Shown: in pieces, positions 1,457 through 18,060 of the stretch
How the letters are laid out: the number at the start of each line of letters is the position of its first letter
How positions within the stretch are numbered: the first letter of the stretch is position 1
Assembly (NCBI RefSeq): GCF_963921235.1
Contig: NW_026948140.1
Span: forward strand, 620,001 to 684,000
DNA: 64,000 nucleotides
Source: Mobula hypostoma
Taxonomy: Eukaryota
Direction of reading: 5' to 3'
Made by a program: the position numbers and the translations under genes
Notes under the pieces: model-generated
The model's database searches: none
What the model was told of the DNA's origin: nothing
What the model saw: the letters and a program-made list of their open reading frames with translations, nothing else

Positions 1457-3650
1457 TTAGGCCTCGTTTAGGCCGTTTGGGGAATGCGTCTGTCGTCTTT
1501 CAATCCATCTCCTCTCTGCTCTTTTTCTTTGGAGGTTTGACCAGTTTATGTTGGTTTCCAGGCCCAGGATTGCTAAGGAGTACATTCCATGCTCCAGGAA
1601 GTGCCTACTAACTGGTTTGTTTTGGTTTCCTCCTGTGATATTACTGAGGTGTCCTGTGAGTCTTGTTCTCAGGCTGTTGCCTGTCTCCCCTATGTATATG
1701 ATATGGCATTGTTTACACTGGATTGCATATACTACATTCTTTTGTTCGCAAGTTATCCTCTGCTCTATCTCAGCCCACTTCCCTGTAGCTCTGTTGCGTA
1801 TGCTTTTTGAAATTCTGATGTATATGCACGCCCTGCAGTTTCCCACCTCGCAGTTTGGCACTGTTCGTACTTTGGTACTGCTTGGTATGCCTTTTAAGTA
1901 TCTACGCCTTTTGAAGGCTGAAACTATGGTGTATTGTCCCAGTGTCCCCCCCCTTCCTCCTTTAGATTTTCAAAGTGTGTTTTGACTGTCTTGTGGATAT
2001 TCACTGCCATCCCACTGTCTCCTGTTATCAAGGGTAGTTTCTGTGTTGTGTTGTCCCGTGGTCGGGGATTTGTGATACTTTTTAAAAAGTCAGATTTGAT
2101 GTGTCTAAGTCTCCGTCTGCTGTAGCCCCTGTTTCTAAGTGCAGAGAAGAGGATAAGAGTGGCTTGGTGGAAGTCCTCTGCCCTGGTGCAAATGCGGTGA
2201 AACCGGGTCAGCTGTTCTTTGACAATGCCTCTAAAGGTGCGTTTAGGATAGTGGCTCCCTGTGTGTAGGAGGGTGTGCCTGTCTGTGGTTTTAAAGAATA
2301 CTTTGGTGGCTAGTTTCTGGCTGCCATTCTGGTGCTTGTTTAAATACCGTAGTGTCCAGGAATCAATTTTCTCCCTATCTGTTGCTGCCTTAACCTTGAT
2401 GGATGGATGGTGAGTGTTTAGGATTTGAATAAATTCCTCTAATTCTACCTCCGAGTGTGTCCACACTCCCCAGATATCATCCAGCTATCTATAGAGACAC
2501 ATGGGTTTCTTGGGGCACTTTGGATAAATAGTTTCCTCCCATTTTGCCATGTATATATTGGCAGAGGCTGGAGCAAGCTTCTTTCCCATCGCTGTGCCCT
2601 TGACTTGTAAGTAGAATTCATTATTGAATTCAAAGTCATTTTTAGTTAGACTGAGGTGAAGGAGTTCTATCAAGGCCTCTTCTGGTCTCTCTAGCTGAGG
2701 GTTCTCCCGAAGGATATCCCTCACTGCCTCTATACCCCTGTCCGTTTCTATATTGGTGTACAGGCTTTCAATGTCCATGGTGAAGAGTATGGCCTCAGGG
2801 GGCACTGACATGGAATTGACTATCCCGACAAAGTGGTACGTATCCTTGATGTAGCTGGAGTGTTTCTGCGATAGTGGGTTAAGGAAGGCATGAATGTATT
2901 CTGCTATCCTGTATGACTCACTGCCGCAGTCCGACACGATGGGCCTGCCGGGTGGTATTTCTCCCGGAACAGTCCATGAGTCTGGGTTCTTGTGTATTTT
3001 GGGGAGGATATAGAACTTGCTTGCTCGTGCCTGTATCCCTGTCAGGTACTCCACCTGCTTCTTCCCGAGGTATCTAGTCCTTTCTAGTTCTTGCAGAATG
3101 TTCCTGATTTCTGTGTGTGTTTCCCAGTATATGGGTTCCTTTAGTTTAGTGTAGTGCTCCGTGTTGTTTAATTGCCTGTGTGCCTCAAATAGATATTGCT
3201 ATTTGTCCATGATCACTATGCTGCTGGTTTGATAACAATGTCCATATTTTCCCTCAACTCCTTCAGGGTTGCTCTCTCCTTCCTAGTTAGATTGGGTTTA
3301 TCCTGTACCTCTCTCTCCCTCTCCATTATCTCATCCAGTGTGCTCTCAAATTGTAGGACTGCTTCTGACCTGTACCTCCTCTTGGGCATCCAGTCTGAGG
3401 GTGGGGTGAAAGGGGTCTTTCTACGTTCTGTCTCCCCAAAAAAGTCAACCAGTACCACTCTCCTGTAGAACTTATCCATGTCCCCCTCAATCTGCTCCTT
3501 ATGCAGCTTTGCAGTCGGTACAAAAGTGAGGCCCCTGTTCAGAACCTTGTGCTGGGTTTCTGTAGGGATGAATGTATGGGAGAGGTTCACGACGGTCTCT
3601 CCCAGTCGTGGACCCTGCCTCTCTCGGCTTTGTCTCCACTCTAGTTTAAA
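1457..3650 (-). pseudogene. PLE ORF2: reverse transcriptase + GIY-YIG endonuclease (disrupted)
   Basis: PLE RT motifs VVNLS..GLTFVPT, FYILPKIHK, PGRPIVS, FTMDIESLYTNI, QVKGTAMG, R*LDDIWG. Linker CEVGNCRAC. GIY-YIG motifs NVVYAIQCKQC-YIGET-RLTGH and GLNE. In-frame TAG at 2485-2487 plus several frameshifts. Confidence 0.93.
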
Positions 3651-4805
3651 GACTGCATCCACCTCTTGACTATGGTCAGGGCTGTGTTCTCTGTCCAATT
3701 GATGTGGTCTGTGTCTGCCTTAAACTGCCTCGCCGGGATTGCAGGAATATAATTCTTAGTTTTAATAACCTTGTCTAGTTGGCCCAGGGTTGCTTGTTCT
3801 GCCTCTGTCAAACAGTGGCTAAAGTTCAGCTCTGGGAAATTTTATATGGGCCATTCTTAATAGTCGCTGAAGCTGTTTAGTCGCTGTTGCTGGTTGATGT
3901 GACCTATTGTTTATTCCAAAGGAAAGGATAGCCTTCTTAGTTTCCAGTTGTGGTTCTAGCTTTGTCAGGATAGCAGTGGCATGGGTGAATTTGGCTCACG
4001 GAAAGCTGTCCAATTGAACATCCTTATTAGGGAATCTTTTGATCCTGGAAATGTTAGAGTCCCCTATAATTAGTATAGGTTTAAGGGGCCTTAGTTCCCA
4101 AGTTACATTTTTCTGTTTAGAGTGAGGATGCCTGGTTATTTGACCCTCCTGGTTGCTGCAAATAGGGGTTACCTGTCATCTTGTTTGTCCCATGCCCTCC
4201 GAATCTTGGGCTGTGTGGTTCCCTGGAGTGGAAGACTTGCTCGGTCCTCGTGTACTGGCTCCCCTTGTGTGTGTGCCCATCTGCACTGGTGTGGGGTGGG
4301 GTGCTGATTCCTCAGAGTCTTGGGTCGGGGAGGCCATGGGAGCAGCGGGCTGGGGCTCCCCTGCTCCTAGGTTGGATTGCGGCTTCTCCGAGGGGCTCAC
4401 CTGGCGTCTTCTCTGTTCCTGTGGCTGGGGCACTGGGGCCATATCGGCGTCGAGTGGGTTAACTAGTTCCAGCGCCCTCCCGTGGACAGTGCCGGAACTC
4501 CCACTGTAAGTGTCGGCGCCGGGAGGACTAACTACCTCCACCGCCCTCCTGTGGACGGTGCCCGAACTCCCACTGCACGTATTGTTCTCGGGACCCGTTG
4601 GTCTGAGACAGTCCCGCAGCACAAATATCGGACTCAAGTTCGTTTTACTCGTCGCCGACGGACGGGGTGCAGCCTGAGCCGTCTTTTTCCGGGGCTCGGG
4701 TGTGATACGGGTCCGGTCACGGCTGACACATAAGCCGTCTCTGGAGGTGGAGTGTCTGTTCCCCTCTCCCCCTTGGGATGCGGTTTCCATTGTCCGTGGG
4801 GTCAT
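3641..4805 (-). pseudogene. PLE ORF1 copy 1: low-complexity N-terminus + SGNH/GDSL esterase-like domain (disrupted)
   Basis: Colinear with the better-preserved ORF1 at 14294-15542. ATG at 4805, premature stop at 4176, terminal TAG at 3641-3643. Confidence 0.8.
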
Positions 4806-5573
4806 TGTGACCGCATTAGGGTTAGGGTTGGGATGCGAGTATGCGGGTAGTGGGCAAAATATCCCTCTAGTGTTTTGTGGAGCTCGTACTGGATATGCAG
4901 TATCACTTTACCCTGCCACTTTGTGTTTGGCCCACGTCATCATCATCTGGGTCCCCAACTTTCCTTTACTGGGATCTTCCTCCTTTTCAACCTCCATTCT
5001 GTTACAATAGTGGAGTTATTGCCTATGGATAGTGTTTTGGATTTGTGGTCTTTTTTATAGGGACTGTGTGCTGTGAACTGGGGGTTGTGCGGTAGCTAAT
5101 TGAGGGGTGTTGTGGGGAGGAACATGCCCGGGGGTAGAGTTAGGTAATGGGGGTTGAGGATTCACGGCGAAGGGAGGTGGGGTGGGGTGGCAATTGGCAT
5201 TGCTGGGGTGGGGGTGTCCCCTGCAGTAGGGGGGAGGGCTGAAATAGGAGCCCAGCTGAGCTGGAGAGTTTCTGCGATAGTGGGTTAAGGATGGCATCCA
5301 TGTACTCTGCTATCCTGTATGACTCACTGCTGCAGTCCGACACGATGGGCCAGCCGGGTGGTATTTCTCCCGGAACGGTCCGTGAGTCTGGGCTCTTGTG
5401 TAGTTTGGGGAGGGTATAGAACTTTCTTACTCGTGGCCGTATCCTTGTCAGGTACTCCACTTGCTTCTTCCCGAGGTATCTAGTCCTCTCTAGTTCTCGC
5501 AAAATTTCCTAATCTGTGTGTGTGTTTCCCAGTATATAGGTTCCCTTAGTTTAATGTAGTGTTACGTGTTGTT

Positions 5574-5591
5574 TAATTGTCTGTGTGCCTC
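5574..5591 (+). repeat. L1 target-site duplication, left copy (right copy 9066-9083)
   Basis: taattgtctgtgtgcctc vs taattgtctgcgtgcctc, 17/18 identical. The sequence is single-copy in the uninterrupted paralogue at ~16325-16342. Confidence 0.9.
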
Positions 5592-8500
5592 TCCTATTCA
5601 AGAATTGATCATTTCTTTATTGATTCTCGTCTTATTTCTTCAGTGATTAAATGTGATTATGACTCTATAACCATTTCGGATCATGCTCCACTTAAGCTTT
5701 CTATTAAAATTCTGGTCAATATACAAAATAATAGACAATGGCATTTTAAATTAACTTTATGAATGAACAGATTGATTTTTTTTTACAATTAATTATACGG
5801 AGGATATTTCTGTGAACATTCTTTGAGATACTTATAGTGGCTTATATAGTGGCTTAAAAAGCTTATATTCGTGGTCAGATTATCTCGTATTCTGCTGCTT
5901 TGAGGAAGAAGTTGAAGCAGGAGGAGTTGGTAATTGTGGACAAGATTAAGGAAATTGATAAGAAATATGTTATAGCTCCTTCTGAGGGGTTATATAAACA
6001 AAGAACTGAACTTCAAATGGAACACAGTTTATTACTTTCGTCCTCGATCGTCCAATTAAAGAAAACAAGAAGTGAATTTTATGTACACAGTGACGAAATT
6101 GGTAAACTGTTGGCTAATCAACTGAAGTCTAATTATGCTAAATCTCAAATTAATCAGATTTATAATCAAAATGACCGACTGATACTTGATCATGTGGGGA
6201 TTAATCAAACCTTCTGTGATTTTTATTCTTCTTTATATCAATCAGAGTCTCCTCAAGATTCTAAATATATGAATGATTTTTTAGATAATCTAGATTTCCC
6301 TGAGATTTCGCAGGATATGTCTTCTATGTTAGATACTCCCATTACCACGGATGAGATTAAGAATGTTATTTTCTCTATGAATTTGGGGAAAGCTCCTGGC
6401 CCTGATGGGTTTACCGTAGAATTTTATAAATGTTTCGCTCCTTCATTAATCCCTTGGTTCTGTAGGGTTTTTGAGGCTTCATTAAAACTTGGTAAACTTC
6501 CTGAATATTTCAATAGAGCGTCAATTTCTTTAATAGTAAAGAAGGATAAAGATCCTGCTCAATGTGCATCTTATAGACCAATATCTTTATTAAATGTTGA
6601 TTCTACAGTTTTTTCTAAGTTATTAGCAAATAGGTTAGAAAAAGTACTTCCTTCTATTATTTCGGAAGACCAAACGGGTTTTATTAAAGGTCGTTACTCT
6701 TTTTATAATATTCGCACACTGTTAAATATTGTTTATACTCCCTCACAAAATGTTTCTGAGTGTGTTATCTCTTTAGATGCTGAGAAAGCTTTCGATAGAG
6801 TAGAATGGCCTTATTTATTAAGGTGCTTGAAATGTTTAATTTTAGTTCGAAATTTATATCCTGGATTAAACTGTTATATCATTCTCCTGTGGCCTCGGTC
6901 CGTACTAACTCTTTAAGTTCACCTTTTTTCCCTCTTTTTCGAGGTACTCGACAAGGTTGTCTTCTTAGTCCTCTATTATTTGATATTGCATTAGAACCTC
7001 TTGCAATTGCCATTCGAGAATCTCCAAATATTACTGGGATAACTCGGGGCTTAAAGTCCCATAAAATATCACTCTATGCTGATGACTTACTTCTATATAT
7101 TTCTAACCCCCAAAAATCCATCCCGGCTGTTTTAGAGTTATTAGCACAATTTAGTTTCTTTTCTGGTTATAAATTAAATCTTAGTAAGAGTGAACTTTTC
7201 CCGATTAATAAACAACTTCCCTTATATAATAACTTTCCATTTAAATTGACTAATAATTATTTTTCATATCTTGGGATTAAAATTACTTGTAAATACAAAG
7301 ATTTATTTAAGATTAACTGTTTACCATTAATAGACCATATTATTCAACTTTCATCTAAATGGTTTCCTTTATATTTAACTTTGATTGGTCGTATTAATGC
7401 AGTTAAGATGTTTTTTTTGCCAAAATTTTTATATATATTTCAAGCATTACCAATCTTTGTTCCAAAATCTTTTTTTGACAAAGTTGACTCTAAAATTTCT
7501 TCATTTATTTGGCAAAATAAAAACCCGAGACTGGGTAAAATACATTTACAGAAAGCTAAGAGAGATGGAGGCTTAGCATTACCTAATTTTAGATTTTATT
7601 ATTGGGCAATTAATATTCGACATATGAAATTCTGGTTACTTGACCAGGATGTTCAGGGTTATACACTTGGCTCTATTTTAGGTTCCTCTCTTCCTTTTGA
7701 TTTGAAACGCCTTAAACAGGTGTCTAACCCGATAGTTAAATATACCTTACGTATTTGGTTTCAATTCAGAAAGTTTTTTGATCTTAATCAATTTGGGTTA
7801 GCGATTCCTATTTTAGGTAACATTTTTTCCTCCCTCTTTTACGGATCGTGCTTTTCAAATTTGGAAGACTAAGGGTATTTCACGGTTTTTGGATTTATTT
7901 TTAGATGGTTCCCTTATGTCTTTTGAACAATTATCTAATAAATATAACTTATCAAGAATACATTTTTTTAGATATCTACAAGTTAGAAATTTCCTAAGTA
8001 CTATACTTTCTTCCTTTCCAATGCTTCCTCCTACATACATTTTAGATACTATAATTAACCTTAATCCATGTCAGAAAGGTGCATCGGCTATGATTTATAG
8101 TATTATTATGAAATTTAGGAAAGCTCCATTTGATAAGATTAGGGTAGATTGGGAACAGGAATTGGGGTTTATCATTTCTGTGGATGACTGGGGGCAGATT
8201 TTACAATTAGTCAATACTTCCTCTATCTGTGCTAAACATTCCCTAATTCAGTTTAAAGTTGTTCATAGAGCACATATGTCCAAAGATAAATTAGCGCGCT
8301 TTTATTCTCATATTAATCCTTTTTGTGATAGATGTCCGGGCCAGATAGCCTCTTTAACTCATGTGTTTTGGTCTTGCCCTACTCTGGAAACTTTTTGGAG
8401 AGACATTTTTAATATTATCTCCAAGGTATTGAATATAGATATCTCTCCTCACCCTATTACTGTTATCTTTGGACTACCTAAAATTTCCAGTAATCTTTCC

Positions 8501-8716
8501 CCTTCAGCCCATAGAATGATTGCATTTCTTACTTTAATGGCGAAAAGATGTATCTTACAACATTGGAAAGAGCTTAATGCTCCATCTACCTTTTTTTGGT
8601 TTTCTCAGACGATATTATGCTTGAATTTGGAGAAAATTAGAAGCAATCTTTATGACTCCTCATTTAAATTTGAACAGACCTGGAGATCTTTTATTCAATA
8701 TTTTCATTTAATGTAA
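5592..8716 (+). pseudogene. L1 ORF2 (APE endonuclease C-terminus, RT, C-terminal Cys/His motif), frameshifted
   Basis: SRIDHFF..SDHAPL (APE); KAPGPDGF, YRPISLLN, DQTGFIKGR, SLDAEKAFDRV, GTRQGCLLSP, LYADD (RT); CDRC..THVFWSC. Split over at least four frames. Confidence 0.93.
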
Positions 8717-9065
8717 TATATACCCTTCTTGTTTTTTTTACTGTTTTTTATGGAGGTCGGGATTGAGGACGTGATTTTAAGTTTTTTAACTCTGTTTGGT
8801 TTCAAGTTAGCCCATTGCTTTGCTTTGCTTTTAGTTAGTTGCACGGTGGGTTTTTTTTGGGGTTTTTGTTTTCCTTTTCTCTATTGATATATATATAAAA
8901 ATTCGTATACTATTATGTTACCTTGGTATGTTATGTTTAAATTACATTGTAGTATTTTTTTTGTATTAATATCTTCTGTAATTTTATTATATTCTAACAG
9001 TGTATTAGTGCCTATATGGCTTACCTTTTTGTATACTTATTCAATAAAAAGATTTAAAAAGAAAG
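5592..9065 (+). mobile_element. 5'-truncated L1-clade LINE
   Basis: AT-rich block with ORF2 motifs, a T-rich 3' UTR, AATAAA at 9043-9048, a short A-rich tail and flanking target-site duplication. Confidence 0.93.
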
Positions 9066-10669
9066 TAATTGTCTGCGTGCCTCAAATAGGTATTGCTGTT
9101 TGTCCATGATAACTATGCTGCTCCCGTTATCTGCTAGTTTGATAACAATATCCATATTTTCTCTCAGTTCTTTCAGGGCTGCTCTCTCCTTCCTGGTTAG
9201 ATTGGGTTTATCCTGTGCTTCTCTGTCCCTCTCTATTATCTCATCCATTGTGTTCTCAAATTGCAAGACCGCTTCTGACCTGTACCTCCTCTTGGGCATC
9301 CAGTCTGAGGGAGGGGTGAAAGAAGTCTTCCTACATTCTGACTCCCCCAAAAAGTCGACCAGTACCAATCTCCTATAGAACTTATCCATGTCCCCCTCCA
9401 TCTGCTCCTTATGGAGCTTTGCAGTCGGTACAAAAGTGAGGCCCCTGTTCGGAACATTGTGCTGGGTTTCTGTAGGGATGAATGTACGAGAGAGGTTCAC
9501 GATGGTCTCTCCCAGTCGTGGACCCTGCCTCTCTCGGCTTTGTCTCCACTCTAGTTTAAAGACTGCATCCACCTCTTTACTATGGTCAGGGCTGTGTTCT
9601 CTGTCCAATGGATGTGGTCTGTGTCTACCTTAAACTGCCTCGCCGGGAATGCAGGGATATAATTCTTAGTTCTAATAACCTCGTTCAGTTGGCCCAGGGT
9701 TGCTTGTTCTGCCTCTGTCAAACAGTGGCTAAAGTTCAGCTCTGGGAAATTTTATATGGGCCATTCTTAATAATTGCTGAAGCTGTTTATTCGCTATTGC
9801 TAGTTGATGTGACCTATTGTTTATTCCAAAGGAAAGGATAAACTTCTTAGTTTCCAGTTGTGGTTCTAACTTTGTCAGGATAGCAGGGGCATGGGTGAAT
9901 TTGGCTCACTGAAAGCTGTCCAATTGAACATCCTCATTAGGGCATCTTTTGATCCTGGAAATGTTAGAGTCACCTATAATTAGTATGGGTTTAAGGGTCC
10001 TTAGTTTCCAAGTTACATTTTTCTGTTTAGAGTGAGGATGCCTGGTTATTTGATCCTCCTGGTTGCTGCAAATAGGGGTTACCTGTCGTTTGTCCCATGT
10101 CCTCCGACTCTCGGGCTGTGTGGTTCCCTGGGGTGGAAGACTTGCTCGGTCCTCGTGTACTGGCTGCCCTTGTCTGTGTGCCCATCCGCATTGGTGTGGG
10201 TTGGGGTGCTGATTCCTCGGAGTCTTGGGTCGGGGAGGCCATGGGGGCGGCGGGCTGAGGCTCCCCTGCTCCTAGGTTGGACTGTGTCTTCTCCGAGGGG
10301 CTCATGGGTGGGGAGGGGCTCACCTGGCGCCTTCTCTGTTCCTCTGCCTGGGGCAGTGGGGCCACATCGGCGTTGAGTGGGGTAACTACTTCCAGCGCCC
10401 TCTCGTTGACGGTGCCGGAACTCCCACTACACGTGTTGTTCTCAGGACCTGTTGGTCTGAGACAGTCCCGCAGCACAATTACCGGACTCAAGTTCGCTTT
10501 ACTCGTCGCCGACGGACGGGGTGCAGCCTAAGCGGTCTTTTTCCGGGGCTCGGGTGTGATACGGGTCCGGTCACGGCTGACACAGAAGCCGTCTCTGGAG
10601 GTGGAGTGTCTGTTCCCCTCTCCCCCTTGGGATGCGGTTTCCATTGTCCGTGGGGTCATTGTGACCGCA

Positions 10670-12092: not shown

Positions 12093-14303
12093 TTAGGCCT
12101 CGTTTAGGCCGTTAGGGGAATGCCTCTGCAGTCTTTCAATCCATCTCCTCTCTGCTCTTTTTCTTTGGATGTTTGACCAGTTTATGTTGGTTTCCAGGCC
12201 CAGGATTGCTTAGGAGTACATTCCATGCTCCAGGAAGTGCCTACTAACTGGTCTGTTTTGGTTTCTTTTTGTGATATTACTGAGGTGTCCTGTGAGTCTG
12301 GTTCTCAGGCTGTTGCCTGTCTCCCCTATGTATATGATATGGCATTGTTTACACTGGATTGCATATATTACATTCTTTTGTTCGCAAGTTATCCTCTGCT
12401 CTATCTCAGCCCACTTCCCTGTAGCTCTGTTGCGTATGCTTTTTGAAATTCTGATGTATATGCACGCCCTGCAATTTCCCACCTCGCAGTTTGGCGCTGT
12501 TCGTACTTTGGTACTGACTAGTATGTCTTTTATGTTTCTACCCCTTTTGAAGGCTGAAACTATGGTGTATTGTCCCAGTGTCCCCCCCTTCCTCCTTTAG
12601 ATTTTCAAAGTGTGTTTTGACTGTCTTGTGGATATTCACTGCCATCCCACTGTATCCTGTTATCAAGGGTAGTTTCTGTGTTGTGTTGTCCCGTGGTCGG
12701 GGATTTGTGATACTTTTTAAAAAGTCAGATTTGATGTGTCTGAGTCTCCATCTGCTGTAGCCCCTGTGTCTAAGTGCAGAGAAGAGGATAGTAGTGGCTT
12801 GGTGGAAGTCCTCTGCCCTGGTGCAAATGTGATGAAACCGGATCAGCTGTCCTTTGACAATGCCTCCGAAGGTGTGTTTGGGATGGTGGCTCCCGGTGTG
12901 TAGGAGGGTGTGTGTGTGTCTGTGGTTTTAAAGAATCGTTTGGTGGCTAGTTTCTGGCTTCCATTTTCTGGTGCTTGTTTAAATACCGTAGTGTCCAGGA
13001 AGTCAATTTTCTCCCTATTTGTTGTGGCCTTAACCTTAATGGATGGATGATGAGTGTTTAGGATTTGAATAAATTCCTCTAATTCTACCTCTGAGTGTGT
13101 CCACACTCCCCAAATGTCATCCAGCTATCTATAGAGACACATGGGTTTCTTGGGGCACTTTGGATAAACAGTTTCCTCCCATTTTGCCATGTATATATTG
13201 GCAGAGGCTGGAGCAAGCTTCTTTCCCATCGCTGTGCTCTTGACTTGTAAGTAGAATTCATTATTGAATTCAAAGTCATTTTTAGTTAGGCTGAGGTGAA
13301 GGAGTTCTATCAAGGCCTCGTCTGGTCTCTCTAGCTGAGGGTTCTCCCGAAGGATATCCCTCGCTGCCTCTATACCCCTGTCCGTTTCTATATTGGTGTA
13401 CAGGCTTTCAATGCCCATGGTGAAGAGTATGGCCTCAGGGGGCACTGACATGGAATTGACTATCCGGACAAAGTGGTACGTGTCCTTGACATAACTGGAG
13501 TGTTTCTGCGATAGTGGGTTAAGGAAGGCATGAATGTATTCTGCTATCCTGTATGACTCACTGCCGCAGTCTGACACGATGGGCCTGCCGGGTGGTATTT
13601 CTCCTGGAACAGTCCATGAGTCTGGGTTCTTGTGTATTTTGGGGAAAATATAGAACTTTCTTGCTCGTGGCTGTATCTCTGTCAGGTACTCCACCTGCTT
13701 CTTCCCGAGGTATCTAGTCCTTTCTAGTTCTCGCAGAATGTTCCTGATTTCTGTGTGTGTTTCCCAGTATATGGGTTCCTTTAGTTTAGTGTAGTGCTCC
13801 GCATTGTTTAATTGCCTGTGTGCCTCAAATAGATATTGCTGTTTGTCCATGATCACTATGCTGCTCCCTTTATCTGCTGGTTTGATAACAATATCCATAT
13901 TTTCCCTCAACTTCTTCAGGGCTGCTCTGTCCTTCCTAGTTAGATTGGGTTTATCCTGTACCTGTCTCTCCCTCTCCATTATCTCATCCAGTGTGCTCTC
14001 AAATGGCAGGACCGCTTCTGACCTGTACCTCCTCTTGAGCATCCAGTCTGAGGCTGGGGTGAAAGGGGTCTTTCTACGTACTGTCTCCCCAAAAAAGTCA
14101 ACGAGTACCACTCTCCTGTAGAACTTATCCATGTCCCCCTCAATCTGCTCCTTCTGGAGTTTTGCAGTCGGTACAAAAGTGAGGCCCCTGTTCGGAACCT
14201 TGTGCCGGGTTTCTGTGGGGATGAATGTACGAGAGAGGTTCACGACGGTCTCTCCCAGTCGTGGACCCTGCCTCTCTCGGCTTTGTCTCCACTCTAGTTT
14301 AAA
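12093..14303 (-). pseudogene. PLE ORF2 copy 3: RT + GIY-YIG (disrupted)
   Basis: Open from the ORF1 junction to a TAG in the catalytic motif (13125-13127). Further frameshifts follow and there is a stop at 12210. Same motifs as copy 1. Confidence 0.93.
14297..14303 (-). promoter_or_regulatory. Candidate -1 ribosomal frameshift heptamer U_UUA_AAC (also 3644-3650, 9554-9560, 16809-16815)
   Basis: ORF1 frame reads TCT TTA AAC TAG; the -1 frame TTT AAA CTA GAG is the RT frame. Identical in four copies. Confidence 0.75.
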
Positions 14304-15114
14304 GACTGCATCCACCTCTTGACTATGGTCAAGGCTGTATTTTCTCTCCAATGGATGTGGTCTGTGTCTACCTTAAACTGCCTCGCCGGGATTGCAGGGA
14401 TATAATTCTTAGTTTTAATAACCTCATTTAGTTGGCCCAGGGTTGCTTGTTCTGCCTCTGTCAAACAGTGGCTAAAGTTCAGCTCTGGGAAATTTTATAT
14501 GGGTCATTCTTAATAGTTGCTGAAGCTGTTTAGTCGCTGTTGCTGGTTGATGTGACCTATTGTTTATTCCAAAGGAAAGGATAACCTTCTTAGTTTCCAG
14601 TTGTGGTTCTAACTTTGTCAGGATAGCAGTGGGATGGGTGAATTTGGCTCGCGGAAAGCTGTCCAATTGAACATCCTTATTAGGGAATCTTTTGATCCTG
14701 GAAATGTTAGAGTCCCCTATAATTAGTATAGGTTTAAGGGGCCTTAGTTCCCAAGTTACATTTTTCTGTTTAGAGTGAGGATGCCTGGTTATTTGACCCT
14801 CCCGGTTGCTGCAAATAGGGGTTACCTGTCGTCTTGTTTGTCCCATGTCCTCCGACTCTCGGGCTGCGTGGTTCCCTAGGGTGGAAGACTTGCTCGGTCC
14901 ACGTGTACTGGCATCCCTAGTGTGTGTGCCCATCCGCACTGGCGTGGGGTGGGGTGCTGATTCCTCGGAGTCTTGGGTCGGGGAGGCCATGGGAACGGCG
15001 GGCTGGGGCTCCCCTACTCCCAGGTTGGATTGCGTCTTCTCCAAGAGGCTCATGGGTGGGGAGGGGCTCGCCTGGCGTCTTCTCTGTTCCTGTGGCTGGG
15101 GCACTGGGGCTACA

Positions 15115-15322
15115 TCGGCGTCGAGTGGGTTAACTAGTTCCAGCGCCCTCCCGTGGACGGTGCCGGAACTCCCACTGTAAGTGTCGGTGCTGGGAAGACT
15201 AATTAGCTGCTTCGCCCTCTCGTGGACGGTTGCTGAACTCCCACTGCAGGTGTGGGCGCTGGGAGGACTACCTACCTCCAGCGCCCTCCCGTGGACGGTG
15301 CCAGAACTCCCACTACACGTGT
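15115..15322 (-). repeat. 69-bp (23-aa) coding tandem repeat in ORF1, 3 units
   Basis: TCSGSSGTVHGRALEVGSPPSAH / TCSGSSATVHERAKQLISLPSTD / TYSGSSGTVHGRALELVNPLDAD. Boundaries approximate. Confidence 0.85.
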
Positions 15323-15552
15323 TCTCAGGACCTTTTGGTCTGAGACAGTCCCGCAGCACAATTACCGGACTCAAGTTCGTTTTACTCGTCGCCGACGGAC
15401 GGGGTGCAGCTTGAGCGGTCTTTTTCCGGGGCTCGGGTGTGATACGGGTCCGATCACGGTTGACCCAGAAGCCTTCCCTGGAGGTGGAGGGTCTGTTCCC
15501 CTCTCCCCCTTGGGATGCGGTTTCCATTGTCCGTGCGGTCATTGTGGCCGCA

Positions 15553-18060
15553 TTAGGGTGAGGGTTAGCGTTAGGATGCGAGTATGCGGGCAGTGGGCAA
15601 AATATCCCTCCAGTGTTTGTGGATCTCGTACTGGAGATGCAGTATCACTTTACCCTGCCACTCTGTGTTTGGCCCACGTCATCATCATCTCGGTCCCCAA
15701 CTTTCCTTTACTGGGATCTTTCTCCTCTTCAACCTCCAGTCTGGAGTTTAAGATACAATTGTGGAATTATTGCCTATGGTTAATGTTTTGGATTTGGGGC
15801 CTTTTTAATAGGGACTGGGTGCTGTGATCTGGGGTTTGTGCGGTAGCTAATTGAGGGGTGTTGTGGGGAGGGGCATGCCCGGGGGTATAGTTAGGTAATG
15901 GAGGTTGAGGATTCACGGCGAAGGGAGGTGGGGTCGGGTGGCAATTGGCATTTCGGGGGTGGGGGTGTCCCCTGCAGTAGGGGGAGGGCTGAAATAGGAG
16001 CCTAGCTGAGCTGGAGTGTTTCTGCAATAGTGGGTTAAGGATGGCATCCATGTACTCTGCTATCCTGTATGACTCACTGCTGCAGTACGACACGATGGGC
16101 CAGCCGGGTGGTATTTCTCAAGGAACGGTCCGTGAGTCTGGGCTCTTGTGTATTTTGGGGAGGGTATAGAACTTTCTTACTCGTGGCTGTATCCCTGTCA
16201 GGTACTCCACTTGCTTCTTCCCGAGGTATCTAGTCCTCTCTAGTTCTCGCAAAATGTTCCTAATCTGTGTGTGTGTTTCCCAGTATATGGGTTCCCTTCG
16301 TTTAATGTAGTGTTCCGTGTTGTTTAATTGTCTGTGTGCCTCAAATAGGTATTGCTGTTTGTCCATGATAACTATGCTGCTCCGGTTATCTGCTGGTTTG
16401 ATAACAACATCCATATTTTCCCTCAGTTCTTTCAGGGCTGCTCTCTCCTTCCTGGTTAGATTGGGTTTATCCTGTATTTTTCTCTCCTTCTCTATTATCT
16501 CATCCAGTGTGCTCTCAAATTGTAAGACCGCTTCTGACCTGTACCTTCTCTTGGGCATCCAGTCTGAGGGAGGGGTGAAAGGGGTCTTGCTAAATTCTGA
16601 CTCCCCAAAAAAGTCGACCAGTACCAATCTCCAAGAGAATTTATGTCCCCCTCCGTCTGCTCCTTCTGGAGCTTTGCAGTTGGTACAAAAGTGAGGCCCC
16701 TGTTCGGAACCTTGTGCCGGGTTTATGTGGGGATGAATGTACGAGAGAGGTTCACGACGGTCTCTCCCAGTCGTGGACCCTGCCTCTCTCGGCTTTGTCT
16801 CCACTCTAGTTTAAAGACTGCATCCACCTCTTGACTATGGTCAAGGCTGTATTTTCTCTCCAATGGATGTGGTCTGTGTCTGCCTTAAACTGCCTCGCCG
16901 GAATTGCGGGGATATAATTCTTAGTTCTAATAACCTCGTTTAGTTGGCCCAGGGTTGCTTGTTCTGCCTCTGTCAAACAGTGGCTAAAGTTCAGCTCTGG
17001 GAAATTTTATATGGGCCATTCTTAATAGTTGCTGAAGCTGTTTAGTCGCTGTTGCTGGTTGATGTGACCTATTGTTTATTCCAAAGGAAAGGATAACCTT
17101 CTTAGTTTCCAGTTGTGGTTCTAACTTTGTCAGGATAGCAGTAGCATGGGTGAATTTGGCTCCCGGAAAGCTGTCCAATTGAACATCCTTATTAGGGCAT
17201 CTTTTGATCCTGGAAATGTTAGAGTCCCCTATAATTAGTATAGGTTTAAGGGGCCTTAGTTCCCAAGTTACATTTTTCTGTTTTGAGTGAGGATACCTGG
17301 TTATTTGACCCTCCCGGTTGCTGCAAATAGGGGTTACCTGTCGTCTTGTTTGTCCCATGTCCTCCGACTCTCGGGCTGTGTGGTTCCCTGGGGTGGAAGA
17401 CTTGCTCGGTCCTCGTGTACTGGCTCCCCTTGTCTGTGTGCCCATCCGCACTGGTATGGGGTCGGGTGCTGATTCCTCGGAGTCTTGGGTCGGGGAAGCC
17501 ATGGGGGCGGCGGGCGAGGGCTCCCCTGCTCCTAAGTTGTATTGCAGCTTCTCCGAGGGGCTCATGGGTGCGGAGGGGCTCACCTGGCGTCTTCTCTGAT
17601 CCTGTGCCTGGGGCAGTGGGGCCACATCGGCGTCGAGTGGGGTAACTAGCTCCAGCGCCCTCCCGTGGACGGTGCCGGAACTCCCACTGTAAGTGTCGGC
17701 GCTGTGAGGACTAACTAGCTCCCTCGCCCTCTCGTGGACGGTTGCGGAACTCCCACTGCAGCTGTAGCCGCTGGGAGGACTCCAGCGCCCTCCCGTGGAC
17801 GGTGCCTGAACTCCCACTACACGTGTTGTTCTCAGGACCTGTTGGTCTGAGACAGTCCCGCAGCACAATTACCGGACGCAAGTTCGTTTTACTCGTCGCC
17901 GACGGACGGGGTGCAGCTTGAGCGGTCTTTTTCCCTGGGCTTGGGTGTGATACGGGTACCGTCACGTTTGACTCAGAAGCTGTCCCTGGAGGTGGAGGGT
18001 CTGTTCCCCTCTCCCCCTTGGGATGCGGTTTCCATTGTCCGTGGGGTCATTGTGGCCGCA
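15553..18060 (-). mobile_element. PLE copy 4, internally deleted derivative without L1
   Basis: Same deletion junction as copy 2 (cctagctgagctggagtg, ~16001-16018). Esterase-like motifs IGDSN, DSFPGA and FGINN lie in 16984-17868. Confidence 0.88.

Follow-up and report, generated by a model that had tools for sequence, protein, structure and literature searches.

How does a Penelope-like element (PLE) whose first open reading frame (ORF) ends in an esterase come to make its reverse transcriptase (RT)? The question is raised by a 64,000-nucleotide (nt) stretch of Mobula hypostoma DNA (contig NW_026948140.1, positions 620,001 to 684,000, here called the window), where four copies of such an element lie on the minus strand. 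An earlier note had drawn attention to SGNH hydrolase motifs in ORF1 of one of them (copy 3). The occurrence of an esterase in PLEs is already known, and the window copies are decayed. Directly behind the esterase, where ORF1 ends and the RT of ORF2 takes over, stands a heptamer of the slippery type. Comparison with related loci suggests that in the living family programmed −1 frameshifting at this junction probably yields a fusion of ORF1, esterase, RT and GIY-YIG endonuclease. The window copies themselves can make neither ORF1 protein (ORF1p) nor fusion intact.

The junction between ORF1 and ORF2

In copy 3 the junction comprises the following features.

14294..14491, minus strand: frame-B C-terminal half of the esterase, including block V (DHIHW, 14362-14348) and closing with the ORF1 stop (14296-14294)
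14297..14303, minus strand: slippery heptamer U_UUA_AAC, in the phase of ORF1 and directly ahead of its stop (4/4 copies)
14255..14296, minus strand: stem-loop predicted downstream of the heptamer (−13.8 kcal/mol, z −4.0), with a longer alternative fold reaching to about 14215
13113..14372, minus strand: RT part of ORF2, shifted to −1 against the frame in which ORF1 ends, with a stop in motif C (13136-13113)

UAG directly follows the heptamer in all four copies, and no ATG is found ahead of the conserved VVNLS motif (14246-14232) of ORF2 in copy 3. On mammalian ribosomes, U_UUA_AAC is listed with the heptamers most prone to shifting (PMC5009743).

Related elements were compared at 45 metagenome loci, 34 of which could be anchored at the esterase end; the 11 without an anchor were dropped. 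The anchored loci and the window form 20 families at 70% identity, and 17 of these have a PLE RT downstream. For 15 of the 17 the first RT match is in −1; one further locus, L039, has an RT start motif in −1 as judged by eye. No AUG precedes the conserved RT start in 16/17 families, and none of 150 ORF1 proteins contains an RT motif in frame. The −1 frame of L003, L004 and L019 is open only from 10 nt ahead of the ORF1 stop, which would confine the shift to the heptamer in these families.

The codons of the junction are biased as well as the residues. At the protein level Leu-Asn is found at the end of ORF1 in 101/125 scorable relatives, 72/125 terminating within one residue. The Leu codon is TTA in 14/16 cases against a background of 16%, and the Asn codon AAC in 15/17 against 52%, both backgrounds being taken from the same domains; at an internal Leu-Asn control site TTA and AAC each occur in 2/9. 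A TAAA core is present in 18 of the 20 families. The 45 nt after the heptamer fold with a mean of −10.0 kcal/mol, the most stable of 33 offsets (the other 32 range from −3.0 to −6.6), and the hairpin ranks within the top tenth of its locus in 12/18 families. Some families have a C-rich/G-rich basal stem, others a G-rich/C-rich one. As a separate observation on window positions 14282-14312, the contigs of more divergent families end at about 14312 in 4/4 public sequencing runs, and among the differences listed to those contigs there is none in the roughly 30 bases around the heptamer, which hints at unusual conservation at the DNA level.

The RT behind the same dead esterase could also be expressed without ORF1, if its message were spliced at an acceptor close to the junction or if translation began at a non-AUG codon or further downstream; the Leu-Asn pair would then be conserved for the protein alone. 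PLE introns are known (PMC8557442, legend of Fig. 1; PMC3846280), a Neptune ORF2 has been cloned with an ATG as its start (PMC12602865), and a UUG, CUG, GUG or AUG codon is found at −19 in the −1 frame in 14/18 families, where it overlaps an invariant Trp codon. In L003, L004 and L019 the open −1 frame does not extend to that codon. As for splicing, an acceptor-like YAG with a pyrimidine tract lies near the junction in only 4/17 families, at varying positions and not in the window; a run presumed to be RNA (X17), with partial coverage of the stretch, shows no joint at the junction and gives no evidence either way. Moreover, an independent RT would predict neither a synonymous codon bias nor a fixed −1 frame, and we regard this explanation as unlikely.

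Several observations weigh against −1 frameshifting at the junction as we propose it. The canonical heptamer occurs in only 8/18 families, the window's included; 4/18 carry G_UUA_AAY (equine arteritis virus uses G_UU(A); PMC5009743), and 6/18 have the poorly re-pairing P-site forms A_UUA, C_UUA, G_GUA or U_CUA. Two families whose contigs contain no RT (L012, L018) lack the heptamer and were excluded from this count, and the internal Leu-Asn control site has TAAA in 5/9 cases. The hairpin signal is partly one of composition (mean dinucleotide z −1.1, with 8/17 below −1.5), and 6/18 families have no unusual hairpin. RNAalifold found no consensus structure in 21 junctions, and a simple pseudoknot is lacking in 12/18 families; in the pseudoknot scan only L001, L022 and L035 exceeded nearly all controls. 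Kinship among the families means that none of these counts is made of independent cases. In both members of the L024/L034 family U_UUA_AAC is followed by UAA, and the RT begins beyond this stop in frame 0. Outside the junction, no hammerhead ribozyme, a terminal-repeat feature by which Neptune elements can be judged, was found in the window copies (hammerhead-like cores with stem II are present in the 10 related loci shown), and the N-terminal helical domain of the relatives' ORF1, described below, is missing from them.

Some of these points would be met by a recoding event that is real and yet is not classical tandem −1 slippage, or that differs from family to family, such as slippage caused by slow termination behind AAC or, in part of the families, read-through of the stop. 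The stop stands directly after the heptamer in 10/18 families and a U in 16/18, and the invariant portion is TAAA rather than the P-site triplet. The frame-0 RT starts (L024:1408-1470; L034:408-470) would be read-through variants on this account. They may equally reflect a one-base indel in the A run shared by the two loci, L034 being otherwise decayed, and the textbook heptamer in 8/18 families, the window's among them, points away from a non-classical event, which we consider improbable. Programmed −1 frameshifting remains the likely mechanism at the junction.

The esterase domain, its descent and its decay

The N-terminal half of the esterase matches 920 protein clusters at E≤0.001, and the motif set therefore exceeds chance. 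Named relatives come from bony fish; no relative was found in the viral contigs searched. The best 150 of the 920 clusters were used for residue counts, and 118 of them were chosen for alignment because they looked complete. Ser, Gly and His are invariant in these 118, Asp is found in 117 and Asn in 112; among all 150, G.SN is present in 147 and DxxHW in 123. The intact relatives as a family thus have SGNH blocks I, II, III and V with Ser, Gly, Asn and Asp-x-x-His.

The structure prediction that the earlier note had proposed as a check was run on a natural relative rather than on the broken window sequence. The closest intact one, P0001, has 64% identity to the N-terminal half in the window. 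Its model (predicted local distance difference test, pLDDT, 87.7) has solely SGNH hydrolases as top structural matches (Foldseek E 7e-8), the best with Z 17.0, root-mean-square deviation 2.9 and 166 aligned residues. Look-alikes in the ESM Atlas are GDSL/SGNH clusters. When the PDB was searched with the family profile, the best sequence match and only SGNH structure was the ORF1 esterase of ZfL2-1 (4C1B, E 4e-4). Pfam Lipase_GDSL_2 scores 14-25 bits, below the curated cut-off of 32.9. A single-sequence search of the PDB with P0001 returned weak capsid matches (E at least 0.055) and no SGNH structure; these matches were set aside as chance. With RT motifs, a CX4CxxC linker and a GIY-YIG endonuclease downstream, the predicted fold and the 4C1B profile match support the view, already taken in the earlier note, that the domain is an SGNH hydrolase ending ORF1 of a PLE.

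In the relatives, ORF1 has 500-900 residues: its N-terminus is basic, a conserved five-helix domain follows, and a low-complexity linker leads to the esterase, which occupies the extreme end. The helical-domain motif is found in 72/86 proteins of at least 450 residues. The five-helix domain (L001:1027-1446) was modelled at pLDDT 95.2; its best structural match reaches Z 8.2, and neither Foldseek (PDB and viral models, E≤0.001) nor the Atlas gave a match, which does not prove a new fold. A NADAR domain above the Pfam cut-off lies between helical domain and esterase in 3 of 12 scanned ORF1 proteins (L019:571-3246; L027:1879-4203; protein P0082).

The earlier note had explained the architecture by domain capture or convergence. 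The architecture is no surprise: esterases in PLEs were published in 2013 and 2017, and the family has evidently kept its esterase for long. Identities of esterase and RT are correlated across 14 elements (Mantel rho 0.56, p 1e-4), with a median RT identity of 43% among the elements compared, and the two trees give matching groups; L035, whose esterase segment has a stop, forms a very long branch in this comparison. Since the divergences of the two domains track each other, they have apparently been inherited together for long and any capture would be ancient: the esterase is, on these alignments, an old, inherited domain rather than a fresh capture. It is very unlikely that the esterase was captured recently or locally, or that a CR1/L2 ORF1 and a PLE RT were joined by chance at the junction. 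Such an origin would accord with the ZfL2-1 esterase being the sole SGNH structure found by the family profile and with the movement of domains between retroelement classes (PMC5408684). Against it stand the layout of esterase and PLE RT, constant in 17 families whose RTs have diverged as far as stated, and the replacement of two residues said to mark transposon esterases of the CR1/L2/RTEX type (PMC3905857). In the columns of ZfL2-1 H191 and S228, taken from the 4C1B profile alignment (S228 lies one column beyond the end of the alignment), the family has Ser or Ala in 118/118 and Pro in 110/118, respectively. This fits an origin separate from CR1/L2 and is no proof of it.

The remnants of this domain in the window are the following.

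14472..15644, minus strand: ORF1 remnant of copy 3 in frame A, low-complexity linker and N-terminal half of the esterase (blocks I-III); first ATG at 15542, premature stop at the end
14706..14729, minus strand: SGNH block I, ILIIGDSN, with the catalytic Ser by motif position (Ser in 118/118 aligned relatives)
14646..14663, minus strand: block II, DSFPRA in copy 3, the oxyanion Gly (118/118 aligned relatives) being replaced by Arg
14559..14582, minus strand: block III, ILSFGINN, with the oxyanion Asn by motif position
14472..14495, minus strand: frame break common to all four copies, 20 bases missing relative to the contig of a related organism
16806..17868, minus strand: ORF1 remnant of copy 4, block II intact, same frame break, heptamer at 16815-16809
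9551..10527, minus strand: ORF1 remnant of copy 2, stop within block II, same frame break, heptamer at 9560-9554
3641..4907, minus strand: ORF1 remnant of copy 1, stop within block II, same frame break, heptamer at 3650-3644

The earlier note had described a complete motif set in the correct order and spacing. All four motifs are where it placed them, on the minus strand and in the order given, but the set is not readable as one domain: blocks I-III share a frame that ends at a stop (14474-14472), block V lies in another, and in none of the four copies are the blocks in a single frame. No window copy encodes an intact SGNH domain. Nor does the spacing hold, the distance from the Asn of block III to the His of block V being 211 nt (70 codons and one base), whereas the family has 74-84 codons there, with a median of 79. 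DSFPGA is present in copy 4, as the note had read it, at 17175-17158, and only there; copies 1 and 2 have a stop at this place and copy 3, the one flagged, has Arg, whereas the base for Gly at 14651 is present in the contigs of relatives. In copy 1 block V reads DHINW, with His replaced by Asn.

The contig of one of four public sequencing runs (X1) has 20 extra letters behind 14485, and loose ends in runs X5 and X14 carry letters matching them. When aligned to an intact relative, the two esterase halves overlap at the break, and intact homologues hold the missing residues. Block V is thus out of frame in the four copies because the 20 bases found in the relative's contig are missing, and the frame break is evidently a shared 20-base deletion. 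An identical stop is found in RT motif C of both copies that reach this motif (copies 1 and 3). Given the shared break and the shared stop, the array appears to have multiplied from a copy that was already dead, and either DNA duplication or mobilisation in trans would account for this. That the break is itself programmed, the window copies making a full esterase through recoding, is hardly credible and largely refuted: the break is identical in 4/4 copies and differences among them are 9 synonymous to 7 replacement in the C-terminal half and 5 to 16 in the N-terminal half (small counts, rough tally), but the relative's contig has its 20 additional bases exactly there, intact homologues retain the residues, block II Gly is lost in 3/4 copies and both full-length RTs share one stop.

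Nature of the element, proposed products and known systems

Behind the RT, ORF2 continues as listed.

12210..12596, minus strand: frameshifted part of copy 3, with the CX4CxxC linker at 12488-12462 and the GIY-YIG endonuclease at 12353-12315
1457..3719, minus strand: ORF2 of copy 1 (RT, linker, GIY-YIG), with a stop in motif C (2496-2473) as in copy 3

Pfam RVT_1 gave no match to the RT fragment, which we take to be of PLE type from its motifs and from the layout. The GIY-YIG domain of copy 1 exceeds the Pfam cut-off. The element therefore combines a PLE-type RT with a following GIY-YIG endonuclease and Cys/His motif, as an endonuclease-bearing PLE does. A CX4CxxC linker is found in copies 1 and 3, and a CX2-5CxxC linker between RT and endonuclease characterises Neptune and Nematis (PMC8557442). 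The best explanation of the window element would be a Neptune-like PLE, present as four dead and partly tandem copies from one broken ancestor. Two side observations concern ORF2 of the relatives. The CX2-5CxxC linker is absent from 7 of 10 related esterase-bearing loci (L002, L003, L004, L007, L008, L011 and L016). In L014, L019 and L026 the GIY-YIG domain, as judged by eye, apparently lies ahead of a 'PF..AYxRxKNL'-like segment, i.e. within the C-terminal extension of the RT, and in the window element and the other group this segment sits between RT and endonuclease.

In the living family most ribosomes would terminate after the esterase, making ORF1p the main product. A minority would slip back by one base at U_UUA_AAC, aided by the stem-loop, and produce the ORF1-esterase-RT-GIY-YIG fusion; slippage would be the only evident route to the RT. 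The ratio of the two proteins would resemble that of Gag and Gag-Pol, and the fusion would tether the RT to the ORF1p assembly. By analogy with ZfL2-1 (PMC3905857), the esterase may be catalytically active and may carry this assembly to membranes. On balance we slightly favour a broader reading, that of a large and old Neptune-like branch with hundreds of ORF1 clusters, whose telomerase-related RT would be produced solely by −1 shifting, fused to a Gag-like ORF1 (five-helix domain and active esterase), NADAR being present in one sub-branch.

The layout in question resembles that of retroviral gag-pol and of the nidovirus 1a/1b frameshift: an X_XXY_YYZ heptamer in phase, a stop shortly after it, a structure downstream and the polymerase in −1. 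No protease domain was seen, so that the fusion may stay uncut, unlike that of gag-pol. For PLEs, according to the legend of Fig. 1 of Craig et al. (PMC8557442), a frameshift with a pseudoknot can set ORF1 apart; the stimulator predicted here looks more like a simple stem-loop. Neither a slippery site nor a stem-loop is described in the available parts of the published accounts of esterase-bearing Neptune-like PLEs (PMC3905857, PMC5408684). A literature search for a described Neptune frameshift yielded nothing but the PMC8557442 legend, and none appears in the available parts of PMC6431247, PMC5718144, PMC3846280, PMC12602865, PMC6515669 or PMC4700185; Repbase, subscription papers and the 2017 Terminon paper (Mol Biol Evol) lay outside the scope of the search, which does not establish absence from print.

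The esterase has been said to occur 'even in Penelope-like elements', with Neptune1_Ren listed (Schneider et al., 2013, PMC3905857), and Neptune-like PLEs of fish and molluscs carry esterases (Rodriguez et al., 2017, PMC5408684). Like the present family, these elements have an SGNH esterase upstream of a PLE RT with a C-terminal GIY-YIG domain. The esterase of Neptune1_Ren covers residues 383-538, comparable to the C-terminal esterase of the ORF1s studied here. Compared by description only, the window copies differ from Neptune1_Ren and from the fish and mollusc elements in that they are pseudogenes, share a 20-base deletion and lack the helical domain at the N-terminus.

The ORF1p of ZfL2-1 (PDB 4C1B) likewise has a C-terminal SGNH domain whose blocks I-III align with those of the family. 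The spacings Ser-Gly, Gly-Asn and Asn-His are 22/30/87 in ZfL2-1 and 20/29/79 here. ZfL2-1 belongs to another retroelement class (CR1/L2), whereas the present family has a PLE RT with GIY-YIG and does not keep H191 and S228; its N-terminal part, a five-helix domain for which no fold match is clear, is not a simple coiled coil. The ZfL2-1 esterase is active and binds liposomes, and its ORF1p enhances retrotransposition without being essential (PMC3905857); activity and liposome binding are known for ZfL2-1 only, and the present family is compared with it by sequence and model. Bdelloid Athena/Terminon PLEs and Vesta long terminal repeat (LTR) elements (PMC5408684) also show SGNH/GDSL domains in retroelements, PLEs included. 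Their GDSL domains are separate accessory ORFs of endonuclease-less or LTR elements, whereas the present elements encode an endonuclease and have the esterase as the last part of ORF1, directly at the junction with the RT.

The published cases are few, and the family is far larger than they suggest; its junction is a short candidate frameshift cassette that can be tested directly. If the frameshift works, Neptune-like elements would be two-ORF elements with a Gag/Gag-Pol-like output, which would alter the view of RT expression and annotation. On the broader reading above, an annotation of these elements as a 'single ORF' would describe the wrong protein, and RT and endonuclease would be accompanied by the esterase. 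If the frameshift works, the family could also serve, as a second system alongside CR1/L2, to study what retroelements gain from lipid esterases.

Layout of the window

Positions 1 to about 19.9 kb of the window are a decayed, partly tandem array of the one PLE on the minus strand, which is broken up by an L1-like element; beyond the array the window consists of a 14-bp satellite.

5592-9066, plus strand: L1-like element, 5'-truncated and frameshifted, with RVT_1 and zf-RVT matches, inside PLE copy 2
19896-64000: 14-bp satellite of about 3150 copies (79% matches), starting directly at the 5' end of the PLE array

An Rfam scan of positions 1-20500 gave 9 weak matches, none of which reached the gathering score, and a scan of 11 related loci gave zero matches. 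An 18-bp duplication with one mismatch lies on either side of the L1-like element (5574-5591 and 9066-9083), and the satellite has a strong strand skew. In the ORF1 linker 69-bp tandem repeats are found at 15131-15322 and 17643-17818, their number differing among the copies. Over the esterase stretch the four copies differ by 2-5%.

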